From the NCBI RefSeq assembly GCF_020991375.1, contig NZ_JAJLQZ010000013.1:22608-46607 (forward strand): 24,000 nt of DNA. The letters are read 5' to 3'. The notes below the pieces were generated by a model. The model made no database searches. It was not told the DNA's origin and saw only the letters and a list, made by a program, of their open reading frames with translations. The DNA comes from Glycomyces amatae. GTDB taxonomy: Bacteria > Actinomycetota > Actinomycetes > Mycobacteriales > Micromonosporaceae. The position numbers and the translations under genes are program-made. Shown here piece by piece: positions 8,404-13,487 of the stretch (within the stretch, counting starts at the first letter, position 1; each line of letters begins with the position of its first letter).

Positions 8404-8730
8404 ATGGCCGATCTGGACCTCGACCTCGAGTCCTTTCGCCGTGCCGCCGATGAGTTCGACGCCGCCAAGGAAGAGGTGCAGGCGCTCCTCGACCAGTTCA
8501 CCGGCACTCTGGCGCAGTTCGCCGACGCCTTCGGCGGTGACGAGATCGGCATGCTCGTCGGCATGGCGCACGACGCCTGCACCGAAGTCCTGAACGAGTG
8601 CTTCACGACCAACATCGAGGAGATCGCCGACTACGCCGAGGCCATCCGCGACATGGCGGACGGCCACGAAGCCGCCGACAACGAGAACGCGCAGCTCTTC
8701 AATCAGCTTCTGACCGAACTCGGCGGTTGA
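8404..8730 (+). CDS. Small helical EspC/WXG100-like type VII secretion helper or target protein
   Basis: 108-aa acidic helical protein (...FRRAADEFDAAKEEVQALLDQFTGTLAQFADAFGGDEIGMLVG...). AAGGAGGA at 8389-8396. ATG 8404 lies 1 nt after the YbaB-like stop. Confidence 0.65.
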   Translation: MADLDLDLESFRRAADEFDAAKEEVQALLDQFTGTLAQFADAFGGDEIGMLVGMAHDACTEVLNECFTTNIEEIADYAEAIRDMADGHEAADNENAQLFNQLLTELGG

Positions 8731-8763
8731 CCCGCCGCGCCCCGTCACCAGGAGGTGCGCCCC

Positions 8764-9258
8764 ATGGGGATGCAGATACCCGGCGAACTCGCAGGTCTGC
8801 TGAGCATGCTCGGCTACGACTGGCCCGAATCCGACGAGGAGTCGATCTTCAACCTCGCCGGCGAGTGGACCGGGATGGCCTCTCAGATCGGCGACAAGGT
8901 CGAACGGCTCAACAGCGCCGCGGCCACGCTGCTGGAGAACAACACCGGCGCCGACATCGAGGCGTTCAGGGAGGAGTACGAGGATGCGGAGTCGGCCGCC
9001 CGCAACCTCGCAGGGGCCGCCGACCCGGCGGGCATCATCAACATCGGGTTGACGATCGCCGCGGGGATCGTCCTCGCACTCAAAGTCCAGGTGATCGTCC
9101 AGCTCATGATGCTGGCGTTCCAGATCGCCCAGGCGATCGCCACGGCAGCGGTCACCTTCGGAGCGTCCCTCGTCCAAATCCCGATCTTCAAGATGATCAC
9201 CGGCATGATCATCGATCAGCTGATCGGCATGGCCCTGGACATGGTGCTCAATGGCTAG
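8764..9258 (+). CDS. WXG100-like N-terminal domain plus hydrophobic helical region: the carrier part of an actinobacterial polymorphic toxin, ending without a toxin domain
   Basis: Motif ...LGYDWPESDEESIFNLAGEWTGMA... (compare CpnT-type IWPNGD...AW), followed by the hydrophobic stretch GIINIGLTIAAGIVLALKVQVIVQLMMLAFQIAQAIATAAVTF.... GGAGG at 8751-8755 favours ATG 8764 over GTG 8755. TAG at 9256-9258. Confidence 0.75.
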   Translation: MGMQIPGELAGLLSMLGYDWPESDEESIFNLAGEWTGMASQIGDKVERLNSAAATLLENNTGADIEAFREEYEDAESAARNLAGAADPAGIINIGLTIAAGIVLALKVQVIVQLMMLAFQIAQAIATAAVTFGASLVQIPIFKMITGMIIDQLIGMALDMVLNG

Positions 9259-10038: not shown

Positions 10039-10758
10039 TCAGGCGGCCCGCCAGTAGGCGAGGGTGTGCGCGCGCTGCTTGGGGACGCCGAGTTCCTTGC
10101 GGGCGAAGGCGGTCAGGGCCCTCGTGGACTTCGCCTCGGCGGCGATCCAGAGGTAGATCCGCTCCGGTTCCTTCGTGAAGTGCGGCAGCTCCTCCCGGAC
10201 CTGCTCCAGCAGTGCGGCGCCGTCCTCGCCCCTGGCGATCTTGCGCAGGTCGTGGCGGATCGGGTCGACGCGGAACGGGAGCTCGTCGTCGTCCGCGGTC
10301 TCGAACCAGATCGTCGCGGGGGTCTCGGGGAACGCGTCGAGCAGGGAGTTGATCGCCGGCAGCGAGGCCGCATCGCCCACGACCAGGAGCCGTTCGGGGC
10401 TCGGGTCCGGCTCGGTGAAGCCGGTGCCCTGCACCGACGCCTCGATCACGTCGCCGGGCTTCGCGGTGCGGGACCAGTCGCTGGCGCAGCCGTCGTGCAG
10501 GGCGAACTCGATGGCGAAGGCGCCGTTCTCGACGTCCGGGTCGACCAGGGTGTAACCGCGCTGATGGGGCCTGCCGTCGTTGTCGAACCACAGGCGCACC
10601 CACATCGTGGGGTGCACGCCGAGTGCCGCGAGCAGGCCGCCGTCGGTGAAGGTGAGGCGCCGGTAGTGCTCGGTGACCTGCTCGGCACCGGTCACGGTGA
10701 ATTTGAAGTCCTTGGCGCGGAACAGCTTCAGTACCGCGCCTTCCCAGCCGTGTCCCAT
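10039..10758 (-). CDS. Siderophore-interacting protein (SIP/ViuB-type ferric-siderophore reductase)
   Basis: FAD-binding beta-barrel motif ...HQRGYTLVDPD..., then an NAD(P)H-binding half ...LLVVGDAASLPAINSLL... and ...YLWIAAEAKSTRALTAFARKELGVPKQRAHTLAYW. GGGAGG lies 6 nt before the ATG. Confidence 0.85.
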   Translation of the reverse strand: MGHGWEGAVLKLFRAKDFKFTVTGAEQVTEHYRRLTFTDGGLLAALGVHPTMWVRLWFDNDGRPHQRGYTLVDPDVENGAFAIEFALHDGCASDWSRTAKPGDVIEASVQGTGFTEPDPSPERLLVVGDAASLPAINSLLDAFPETPATIWFETADDDELPFRVDPIRHDLRKIARGEDGAALLEQVREELPHFTKEPERIYLWIAAEAKSTRALTAFARKELGVPKQRAHTLAYWRAA

Positions 10759-10808
10759 CCCGGGCCTCCCTGGTCGTCCCCTGTGGAGATGCGAGTCGTC
10801 ATTATGTC

Positions 10809-10827
10809 TTAGGTTAGACTAACCTAA
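10809..10827. promoter_or_regulatory. IdeR/DmdR iron box
   Basis: TTAGGTTAGACTAACCTAA is a perfect 19-bp palindrome differing from the consensus TTAGGTTAGGCTAACCTAA only at the central base. It lies 51 nt upstream of the SIP start and 3 nt upstream of ATG 10830. Confidence 0.8.
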
Positions 10828-10829
10828 CT

Positions 10830-13487
10830 ATGAGCTTCATGTGCTACCGGGACGCCTGGGGGATCCCCCACCTGCGGGCGCCCGACGCGAACGCGCTGGC
10901 GTTCGCGCAGGGATGGAACGCCGCCGCCGACCGGGCCTGGCAGATCGAGACCGCGCGCCGCCGCGCGACCGGCACCGCCTCGGCCCTCCTCGGCGAGTAC
11001 TGGATCGGCTGGGACCGCCTGGTCCGGCAGGCCCGCGTGGTCGACACCGCGGTCGCGGCCTTCGACGCGCTGGACTCCGCCACGGCCGACTGGGTCCGCG
11101 CCTTCGTCGCGGGAGTCAACGACGGACTGGCGAAAGGGGCCGCCTCCGGCGCCGGAGACGAGGCCCAACGCCTCTGCGAGCCCTGGGAGCCCTGGACGCC
11201 GCTCGCCTTCTGGCACGCCGACCACCTGCTCTTCGGGGCCGGGTTCCCCGCGAAGCTGTGGCGCGAGCGGGTCCGGGACGCCCTGGGGGAGGACGCCGTC
11301 GACCGGTTCGCCCTGGACGGGCCCGAGCCGGTCGGCTCCAACGGCTGGCTCCTCGACGGGTCCATGACCGCCTCCGGCTCGCCCCTCCTCGCGGGCGACC
11401 CGCACCGCTTCATCCAGCTCCCCGGCTCCTACCAGCAGATCCGCCTCGCCTGCGACGAGTTCGACGTCGTCGGCCTGGCCATGCCCGGCATCCCCGGCAT
11501 CGCCCACTTCGGGCACGCGGGCGGCGTCGCCTGGGGCATCACCAACGCCATGGCCGACACCCAGGACCTCTACCGGGAGCGCCTGCGCCGCAACGCGAAC
11601 GGCTCCGTCGAGGCGTTCGGCCCCGATGGCTGGGAACCGGTCTTCACGCGGACCGAGCGCTTCCAGGTCGCCGACGGCCCCGATCAGACCGTCGAGGTCG
11701 TCGAGACCGCCCGCGGCCCGGTCGTCGCCGGAGGGCCCGAAGAAACCGAGGGGCCGCAAAGTTTCGGGACGGCGCTGAGCCTGCGCGGCCCCGCCCAGGC
11801 GCTCCCCGACCTCGGGTTCGCCGCGCTGCCCCGGCTGCTGCACGCCTCCATCGTCACCGATGTCGATGCCGCGCTTCAGGACTGGGTCCTCCCGGTCAAC
11901 GTGGTCATGGCCGCCGACACCCGGGGCGGGCTCCTCCACCGCACCGCCGGGCGCGTGCCCGAGCGGGACGCGGCGAACCTCCGCAGCCCCGTGCCCGCCT
12001 GGGAGCCCCGCCACGCCTGGGACGGCTGGAAGCGCATGCCCCGCAAGCAGGTCGACCGGATCGCCGTCATGGCCAACGACCGCGCCCTCGCCGCGCCCCT
12101 CGGCGTCGAGTTCTGCCCGCCGCACCGCGCCGACCGCATCCGCTCGTTGCTGGAGGCCCGGTCGGACTGGACCGCCGCCGACATGGCCGCGATCCACGCC
12201 GACACCCGGCTCCCCACGGCCGGCGCCGTGCTCGACCTGCTCCCCGGCCTCGACCTTGACGGCGACGCCGCCTCGCTGCGCAAGACCCTGCTCGCCTGGG
12301 ACCGCCGGATGGACGCCGACAGCACCGAGGCCGCCGCCTTCGCCGCCGTCCGGGCCGCGTTCGTGCGCCGCCTCGCCGCGCTGCCGCGGTTCCGGGCGCT
12401 CGACGGGCCTTCGGGCCTGCCGCCGGTGTTCGCGCCCTGGCTCGCCCTGCGGCCCCGCATCGGGTTCGCCCTGGAGCACGTGCTCGACGCGGCCGCTCCA
12501 GGGGAGGCGACCGGCCCGGGCGCCGCGCAGCGCCTCATCGACCCGGCCGACCGCGACGCCGCCCTGCGCGGCGCCCTCGAGGAGGTCGCCGCCGACCCTC
12601 CCGCCGCCTGGGGCGAGGTCCACCGGCTCGTGCCCTGGGAGGACCTGCCGCCCGGCGCCGAGGAGTCGGAGCCCCTGACGGGCATGTCGGGCGACGCGGA
12701 CTGCGTCCTGTCGACCTCCGGCGTCCCCGGCGTCACCGAGGACTTCTCCCGCGGCCCCGCCGCCCGCTGGGTCTGGGACCTCGCCGACCGGCGCCGGAGC
12801 CGCTGGATCGTCCCCTTCGGAGCCTCCGGGACCCTCGGGCCCCACCACCGCGACCAGTTCCCGCTGTGGCGGCGCGGCGAACTCGCCCCCGTCGTCACCG
12901 ACTGGCACCTGCTGCGAGAGGAGCACCGCATGATCGACCGCCCCGCCGTCTTCGAACGGCGCCTGGAGGGCTTCGGCACCGTCGCCGTCGTCCCCGTCCG
13001 CCCCGCCGAGGACCTCGACCTCATCTACGGCTGGGTCACCCAGGAGCGGGCCCGGTTCTGGGGCATGACCGGCCACTCCCGCGACCACGTGCTGGAGATC
13101 TACGAGTACCTCGACGCGCTGAGCACCCACCACGCGTTCCTGCTGCTGCGCGACAGGGCGCCGATCGCCCTGTTCCAGACCTACGAGCCCGACGCCGACC
13201 CGGTGGGGGAGTGCTACGAGGTCGAGCCCGGCGACATCGGCGCCCACCTCCTGGTCGCCGCCCCGCAGGGCCGCGCCCAGGTCGGGTTCACGGGCAGGCT
13301 CATGCAGGTTCTCACCGCGTACCTCTTCGACGACCCGAAGCACCGGCGGATCGTCGTCGAGCCCGACGCCCGCAACGACCAGGCCCGGGCCCGCATCCGC
13401 CGCCTCGGGTTCACGCTCGGCCCCGAGATCCGGCTGCCGGACAAGACCGCGCAGCTCGCGTTCCTGCGCCGCGAGGACGCCGCCTAG
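10830..13487 (+). CDS. Fusion protein: penicillin amidase/acylase-family Ntn hydrolase (N-terminal, about 700 aa) + IucB/DesC/MbtK-type siderophore N-acyltransferase (C-terminal, about 180 aa)
   Basis: N-terminal: ...YRDAWGIPHLRAPD...AFAQGWNAAADRAWQIE... and the nucleophile motif ...GSNGWLLDGSMTASGSPLLAGDPH. No signal peptide. C-terminal: ...DLDLIYGWVTQERARFWGM...FQTYEP...PGDIGAHLLVA...LFDDPKHRRIVVEPDARNDQARARIRRLGFTLGPEIRLPDKTAQLAFLRRE, the Acetyltransf_8 pattern. Confidence 0.85.
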   Translation: MSFMCYRDAWGIPHLRAPDANALAFAQGWNAAADRAWQIETARRRATGTASALLGEYWIGWDRLVRQARVVDTAVAAFDALDSATADWVRAFVAGVNDGLAKGAASGAGDEAQRLCEPWEPWTPLAFWHADHLLFGAGFPAKLWRERVRDALGEDAVDRFALDGPEPVGSNGWLLDGSMTASGSPLLAGDPHRFIQLPGSYQQIRLACDEFDVVGLAMPGIPGIAHFGHAGGVAWGITNAMADTQDLYRERLRRNANGSVEAFGPDGWEPVFTRTERFQVADGPDQTVEVVETARGPVVAGGPEETEGPQSFGTALSLRGPAQALPDLGFAALPRLLHASIVTDVDAALQDWVLPVNVVMAADTRGGLLHRTAGRVPERDAANLRSPVPAWEPRHAWDGWKRMPRKQVDRIAVMANDRALAAPLGVEFCPPHRADRIRSLLEARSDWTAADMAAIHADTRLPTAGAVLDLLPGLDLDGDAASLRKTLLAWDRRMDADSTEAAAFAAVRAAFVRRLAALPRFRALDGPSGLPPVFAPWLALRPRIGFALEHVLDAAAPGEATGPGAAQRLIDPADRDAALRGALEEVAADPPAAWGEVHRLVPWEDLPPGAEESEPLTGMSGDADCVLSTSGVPGVTEDFSRGPAARWVWDLADRRRSRWIVPFGASGTLGPHHRDQFPLWRRGELAPVVTDWHLLREEHRMIDRPAVFERRLEGFGTVAVVPVRPAEDLDLIYGWVTQERARFWGMTGHSRDHVLEIYEYLDALSTHHAFLLLRDRAPIALFQTYEPDADPVGECYEVEPGDIGAHLLVAAPQGRAQVGFTGRLMQVLTAYLFDDPKHRRIVVEPDARNDQARARIRRLGFTLGPEIRLPDKTAQLAFLRREDAA

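Follow-up and report, generated by a model that had tools for sequence, protein, structure and literature searches.

In a 24,000-nucleotide stretch of the Glycomyces amatae genome (contig NZ_JAJLQZ010000013.1, positions 22,608 to 46,607; referred to below as the window, with coordinates counted from its first base), we identified a locus that is quite probably the Glycomyces orthologue of the accessory desJ-desG-desH genes, which are controlled by DmdR1/IdeR, with desG and desH fused and an acyl swap for desferrioxamine B (DFO-B) as its function. The locus consists of two divergent genes with an iron box between them. The gene on the minus strand (10039-10758) encodes a flavin reductase of 239 aa of the siderophore-interacting protein (SIP) type and is referred to as desJ-like. 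The gene on the plus strand (10830-13487) encodes a protein of 885 aa without a signal peptide, in which Pfam recognizes a Penicil_amidase and an Acetyltransf_8 domain, and is referred to as desGH. Both open reading frames were supported as genes by analysis of G+C content at third codon positions (GC3) and by Pfam. A first-pass annotation, made from the sequence, had already called the minus-strand gene a SIP reductase, in agreement with its SIP (E 2.5e-20) and FAD_binding_9 (E 5.5e-11) domains.

The penicillin-amidase gene was named desG by Cruz-Morales et al. (2017, PMC5812494), who located it either inside des clusters or elsewhere beside an iron box. In Streptomyces coelicolor, the genes SCO4048-4050 were found via the predicted DmdR1 regulon (Augustijn et al., 2025, PLoS Biol, PMC12161575). 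SCO4048 is desJ, a SIP paralogue of desF, SCO4049 is desG, and SCO4050 is desH, which is DesC-like. In the desG null mutant DFO-B was about 1000-fold lower, in the desH null mutant it was 16-fold lower, and desferrioxamine E (DFO-E) went up; the desJ mutant made more DFO-B (PMC12161575). According to the model of these authors, DesG de-succinylates N-hydroxy-N-succinylcadaverine (HSC), after which DesH acetylates the resulting N-hydroxycadaverine to N-hydroxy-N-acetylcadaverine (HAC). They also reported desGH fusions in S. atratus and in Micrococcus CH3 and CH7, and suggested that fusing the two takes advantage of a locally high level of the intermediate. In the supplementary table of that study, the box TTAGGTGAGCCTAACCTAA stands between SCO4048 (complement) and SCO4049.

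In the published work, desGH was detected by matches to PF01804 and PF13523 within 1 kb (PMC12161575). In the window, both profiles match within one 885-aa frame. The hallmarks of desJGH are also present in this genome, namely an iron box between a SIP gene and desG, an adjoining SIP paralogue, and the core desABCD genes. The S. coelicolor locus has the same three functions (SIP paralogue, penicillin-amidase-family protein, DesC-like N-acetyltransferase of the GNAT family) and the same layout, with a divergent SIP gene and an iron box before the amidase gene, and it is likewise separate from desABCD. Sizes are about 241, 782 and 206 aa in S. coelicolor, and 239 and 885 aa in Glycomyces. The two loci differ in that desG and desH form one frame in Glycomyces, and in the operator, which departs from the S. 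coelicolor box at 3 positions and adjoins the start codon; the boxes of Streptomyces loci end at least 16 nt, and typically 35-60 nt, ahead of where the protein match begins. The S. atratus and Micrococcus fusions share with the Glycomyces locus both the joining of amidase to acyltransferase and the association with an iron box, but the fused Micrococcus gene lies inside the des cluster, whereas the Glycomyces gene is a separate locus. In the survey of related loci described below, the exact S. coelicolor box TTAGGTGAGCCTAACCTAA was found before seven split Streptomyces loci (L034, L062, L063, L069, L072, L080, L093). In their best tblastn segment, these loci share 57-61% identity with the window protein, and they fall in the same tree. 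Because the S. coelicolor box precedes split loci of the same family, the published locus is tied to the surveyed family.

The gap between the SIP gene and the 885-aa gene is 71 bp long (10759-10829) and contains, at 10809-10827 and assigned to neither strand, the 9+1+9 palindrome TTAGGTTAGACTAACCTAA. Its 9-nt arms are 100% complementary and are separated by a single central base, which is also the sole mismatch to the actinobacterial iron-box consensus TTAGGTTAGGCTAACCTAA (18 of 19 positions identical). The G+C content of the window is 72%; when it was shuffled 100 times with dinucleotides preserved, not one sequence within 3 mismatches of the consensus arose. Across the 6.17 Mb of the genome, no other site comes as close to the consensus: the box alone has at most 1 mismatch, and the next sites have 2. 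A chance palindrome was ruled out by this genome-wide consensus scan together with the shuffles. These results support the interpretation of the palindrome as an IdeR/DmdR-type operator common to the divergent SIP and acylase-GNAT genes. The near-consensus 19-bp palindrome described in the first-pass annotation was thus reproduced in its position within the 71-bp gap, its arms and its single mismatch, and it proved to be the best match in the genome. The start of the box is also 51 nt away from 10758, where the SIP start codon begins, as had been noted; the distance from its end to the ATG at 10830 had been given as 3 nt, which is the offset, the actual spacer being 2 nt. On the desJ side, a Shine-Dalgarno-like AGGGAGG (10765-10771, minus strand), assigned by sequence alone, lies 6 nt before the ATG start codon.

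In several of the surveyed Streptomyces loci (L053, L065, L066, L073, L076, L077, L081, L089, L091), we observed two overlapping iron-box matches offset by 5 bp, with the pattern TTAAGTTAGGCCAGCCTAACCTAA, about 35-75 nt before the acylase match. The doubled pattern suggests a compound operator in these loci.

The transcript of desGH probably has no leader or almost none, since only 2 nt separate the end of the box from the ATG, too few for a ribosome site. A candidate -10 hexamer, TAGACT, lies inside the iron box (10815-10820); its assignment is based on position and on the comparison of Glycomyces clades with and without a leader. The identical 19-mer, followed by YT and ATG, is present in 23 of 30 Glycomyces loci, and the flank upstream of the box varies freely. 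In a distant Glycomyces subclade (L122-L127), the ATG follows the box at a distance of 17-25 nt, and the gap between them contains a GGAGG-type ribosome site in at least two loci (L124, L126) and is purine-rich in the others. With transcription starting about 7 nt after TAGACT, at a position fixed relative to the box, transcripts of the main clade would have essentially no leader, and those of the distant clade a short leader with a ribosome site. The clade comparison and the abutment of box and ATG thus favor the leaderless transcript with a -10 element inside the box that had been proposed in the first-pass annotation. Operator, -10 region and start codon would then form one invariant 24-bp unit in most Glycomyces, a clean case of an iron-repressed leaderless gene.

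The Penicil_amidase profile (PF01804) matches residues 6-693 of DesGH (E 2e-144, 483.6 bits against a cut-off of 21.3) and is covered from position 5 to 671 of 675. The Acetyltransf_8 profile (PF13523) matches residues 725-868 (E 2e-44, 151 bits against a cut-off of 27), which define the DesH-type N-acyltransferase domain (13002-13433, plus strand). The chain closest to the acylase domain is PDB entry 35sz, a processed "penicillin acylase family protein". Residues 6-170 of DesGH align with residues 14-176 of its alpha chain, and Ser170 falls on the first residue (SN...) of the beta chain in both 35sz (E 2e-106) and the glutaryl-7-aminocephalosporanic acid (glutaryl-7-ACA) acylase 4hsr (E 1e-70). 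On the plus strand, the predicted alpha-chain region therefore comprises residues 1-169 (10830-11336), the beta-chain region residues 170-698 (11337-12923), and the predicted N-terminal nucleophile is Ser170 (11337-11339). The residues G169-S170-N171-G172-W173 and D190-P191-H192 are all present and invariant across 43 homologues. The sequence GDPHR is kept in 35sz and 4hsr, and His192 corresponds to the beta-23 histidine. Given the alignment of Ser170 with residue 1 of the beta chains and the invariance of the site residues in the 43 homologues, autoprocessing at Gly169|Ser170, with the GNAT domain left on the beta chain, can soundly be inferred.

No N-terminal signal sequence is present in DesGH, the Pfam match beginning at residue 6 and the N-terminus MSFMCYRD being conserved. 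Penicillin G acylase, PvdQ and acyl-homoserine lactone (AHL) acylases are usually exported by means of a signal peptide, a trait that is not part of the definition of the fold. DesGH is thus predicted to be cytoplasmic, which fits the coupling to an acyl-CoA-dependent domain. Domain, motif residues and the match from residue 6 all agreed with the earlier description of an N-terminal nucleophile (Ntn) hydrolase acylase with a GSNGW...DPH motif and no signal peptide. The second half of that description, fusion to a GNAT domain of the IucB/DesC/MbtK type, was borne out by the Acetyltransf_8 match and by the nearest solved relatives, DfoC (5o7o, E 2.5e-26), NcdE and MbtK. The Acetyltransf_8 family is common to this domain, DesC, the N-terminal domain of DfoC, IucB and MbtK. 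With 32% identity to the genome's own DesC, the DesH-like domain is a separate paralogue; DesH has been proposed to prefer acetyl-CoA, and DesC succinyl-CoA.

An AlphaFold model of DesGH, based on 43 sequences, reached a pLDDT of 85 and a pTM of 0.80, and its linker was structured, with strands at residues 696-722. The nearest PDB folds according to Foldseek were D-succinylase of Cupriavidus sp. P4-10-C (7ea4, 7eby) and class III cephalosporin/glutaryl-7-ACA acylase (4hsr, 4hst), which ranked ahead of penicillin G acylases, MacQ and PvdQ. These enzymes share Ser beta-1 and GDPHR with DesG, but they are only 24-35% identical (Foldseek), have no GNAT domain and no iron regulation, and act on other substrates. 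Since the nearest solved relatives hydrolyse amides of short dicarboxylic acids, the kinship supports the proposed de-succinylation by DesG. PvdQ of Pseudomonas aeruginosa is likewise an Ntn acylase that removes an acyl group in the biosynthesis of a siderophore (pyoverdine) under iron control. It differs in being periplasmic and in stripping myristoyl from the product of a nonribosomal peptide synthetase (NRPS), and it is only distantly related, with an NCBIfam score of 20.5 bits (cut-off 950) and a Foldseek rank of 42 or lower. No specific NCBIfam model matched DesGH, and the only NCBIfam matches were below threshold, to PvdQ (E 9e-5) and AAC(6'). In the literature searched, we found no solved or biochemically characterised DesG or DesH.

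The fused architecture is not peculiar to G. amatae. In a large protein collection, full-length homologues with 55-79% identity were found in Glycomyces, Streptomyces and Kitasatospora, all with PF01804 and PF13523, and labelled by NCBI only as "GNAT family N-acetyltransferase" or "penicillin amidase". We then surveyed the best 80 of 576 related stretches from species-representative genomes. Genes for desG and desH were fused in 43 of the 80 loci, a share that is biased upward by selection for likeness to a fused query, and adjacent but separate in 36; the remaining locus had no GNAT match within the fetched stretch. An iron box (at most 4 mismatches) was present within 320 nt upstream in 71 of the 80, and a divergent SIP gene adjoined the acylase gene in 51. 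The fused form also occurs in eight of nine Kribbella loci and in the S. griseus group. The gene occurs in 30 of the 32 other Glycomyces species genomes and forms a single, complete open frame in 26 of these. The two without it have no PF01804 gene at all, but have kept IucA/IucC synthetases of the NRPS-independent siderophore (NIS) type. The single frame in 26 other Glycomyces genomes and the 43 fused species loci rule out an assembly artefact or a chance frame, the concern for which the first-pass annotation had called for a search of domain architectures; the fusion is recurrent across species and hence genuine.

In a tree of the acylase domains, the fused or split state requires 15 changes, and at least 10 of these are forced by well-supported branches. 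The sequence of the junction indicates how such changes may come about. Where the genes are split, the end of desG and the start of desH share 4-14 nt, with start and stop codons interlocked as ATGA or ATGnnnnnnTGA, and in at least 30 of these loci a GAGGAG motif is found inside the end of desG, ahead of the overlap. In the window, comparison with the split loci places the fusion junction at 12918-12932 (plus strand), where GAGGAG is followed after 6 nt by an in-frame ATG (Met701). We read GAGGAG and Met701 as remnants of the desH ribosome site and start codon, retained in frame. A small indel at the desG/desH overlap would fuse or separate the frames, and an overlap of only 4-14 nt, for which a small indel suffices, would account for the repeated switching. 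The retained site could still drive internal initiation and thus produce a free DesH domain beside the fusion protein.

Several copies in the survey were irregular. The fused gene is spread over more than one reading frame in two Glycomyces genomes (G027:C33, G029:C8). In two others (G001, G008), longer frames of 910 and 965 aa match in pieces, which suggests inserts. These four copies are either decaying or assembly errors. A fused desGH in a metagenome-assembled genome labelled as an uncultured Haliangium sp. of the Myxococcota (L021, CAYMOR010000007.1) nests among Streptomyces in the tree and has no iron box or SIP gene nearby, and would reflect either a binning contaminant or horizontal transfer.

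Pfam analysis of the window genes identified no NRPS or NIS gene, as the first-pass annotation had stated. The desABCD genes are located on another contig (C8), where homologues of desA, desB, desC and desD stand in a row (Pyridoxal_deC, Lys_Orn_oxgnase, Acetyltransf_8, and IucA_IucC with FhuF). An iron box with 2 mismatches lies immediately before the first des gene; it overlaps the first bases of the stop-to-stop frame, in which the start codon listed first comes about 50 nt further on. Further iron boxes are found on contigs C23 and C67, in stretches with genes for siderophore-binding proteins (Peripla_BP_2). The genome contains one gene for a repressor of the DtxR/IdeR family, with the domains Fe_dep_repress, Fe_dep_repr_C and SH3, and one gene of the penicillin-amidase family, which is the window gene.

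A second set of IucA/IucC-type synthetase genes (L002-L004, L008) is located on contig C12 of the same genome (G000), at about 204.5-206.6 kb, and the genome probably makes a second NIS siderophore. The genome-wide scan at up to 4 mismatches detected no iron box near these synthetases, the boxes on C12 being about 208 kb away.

Together with the published model, these observations suggest the following mechanism. When iron is plentiful, the single IdeR/DmdR-type repressor of the genome would occupy the 19-bp box and keep both genes off. The box overlaps the predicted -10 region and the desGH start site and is 50 bp upstream of desJ, so that one binding event could block both genes. Under iron starvation, desJ and desGH would be switched on together with desABCD, which has its own box on the other contig. 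The DesGH precursor would remain in the cytoplasm and cleave itself at Gly169|Ser170, with the GNAT domain staying on the beta chain. Ser170 would then strip the succinyl group from N-hydroxy-N-succinylcadaverine, and the attached DesH domain would acetylate the freed N-hydroxycadaverine with acetyl-CoA. From the acetyl-capped starter, DesD would make linear DFO-B instead of cyclic DFO-E. DesJ would act as a paralogue of SIP-type ferric-siderophore reductases. The proposed substrate is thus the monomer precursor during biosynthesis, and not the finished siderophore after iron release, as in the published model.

Some considerations weigh against this interpretation. The orthology to SCO4049 and SCO4050 is supported indirectly, by architecture, synteny, the shared operator and family membership. 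The activities of DesG and DesH are a model derived from knockouts, and in vitro proof is absent from the 2025 study (PMC12161575). A simple sigma-70 consensus scan of 10600-11000 found no promoter, and we found no report of desferrioxamine production by Glycomyces in the literature searched. Moreover, a different role, in aryl capping, was proposed for desG when the gene was named (PMC5812494).

The aryl-capping proposal was made for strains that carry desG and produce aryl-desferrioxamines (PMC5812494). In a broader form, DesG would work in the synthetic or transfer direction, or DesGH would add phenylacetyl or fatty-acyl groups, so that aryl or amphiphilic desferrioxamines would result. The domain content is equally compatible with such caps. 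Penicillin acylases can indeed run in the synthetic or transfer direction. We nevertheless consider this explanation unlikely: the nearest solved and fold relatives cleave succinyl and glutaryl amides rather than phenylacetyl amides, and the loss of desG or desH in S. coelicolor specifically removes DFO-B in an organism in which aryl-desferrioxamines are not known (PMC12161575). Those knockouts bear equally on the suggestion that the locus serves salvage. According to this suggestion, DesGH would act after uptake of the organism's own or foreign ferrioxamines and the reductive release of iron by DesJ, and would strip and re-acylate their hydroxamate units for recycling or detoxification. The arrangement of acylase and SIP reductase genes on either side of one operator in 51 of the 80 loci and the predicted cytoplasmic location of DesGH, which has no signal peptide, would suit this role, as would the two Glycomyces genomes that keep NIS synthetases but have no desGH, which point to an accessory function. 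However, the S. coelicolor phenotypes are biosynthetic, with DFO-B lost, DFO-E increased and more DFO-B in the desJ mutant (PMC12161575), and evidence for intracellular deacylation of finished ferrioxamines is nonexistent. If salvage were the true role, the S. coelicolor knockouts would have affected DFO-B only secondarily, by way of precursor pools. We regard salvage as quite improbable. The first-pass annotation had pointed to removal or exchange of acyl chains on hydroxamate siderophores, in tailoring or in recycling after iron release; the exchange of acyl groups matches the published swap model, and recycling is the less supported half of that proposal.

It is very improbable that DesGH is an iron-unrelated acylase, for instance one active on AHL quorum-sensing signals or beta-lactams, and that palindrome and GNAT fusion are incidental. 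The Pfam family does include such enzymes, and there is the weak NCBIfam match to PvdQ (E 9e-5), which is far below the cut-off. Yet the operator is conserved across genera, the GNAT partner is of the hydroxamate-siderophore type, DesGH lacks the signal peptide of AHL and beta-lactam acylases, and PvdQ and penicillin G acylase are much more distant from it than the succinyl and glutaryl acylases. The acyl swap for DFO-B by a fused desG-desH pair under iron control thus remains the probable function of the locus.

The genes that neighbour the iron locus are unrelated to it. WXG100-like genes (Pfam WXG100, WXG100_2) are located upstream, at 8404-9258. The downstream neighbours encode a sugar-binding protein, a permease, a GH43 enzyme, two DUF6807 proteins and a ROK regulator.

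The locus type, its iron regulation, its role in DFO-B formation and the existence of fused forms have already been published (2017, PMC5812494; 2025, PMC12161575), so the combination of acylase and acyltransferase is not a new one. What the present analysis adds to these papers is the frequency and lability of the fusion, the retained ribosome site and ATG of desH, the unit of operator and start codon, and the kinship of the acylase with succinyl and glutaryl amidases. The fusion is far commoner than the examples from S. atratus and Micrococcus suggest: 43 of 80 species loci have it, as do nearly all Glycomyces. The locus is located away from the des cluster, and its proteins carry generic names at NCBI. 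The value for annotation is modest: naming the genes desJ and desGH predicts capped, B-type desferrioxamines in this Glycomyces. As a natural single chain, DesGH would also be a convenient protein for in vitro proof of the acyl swap.

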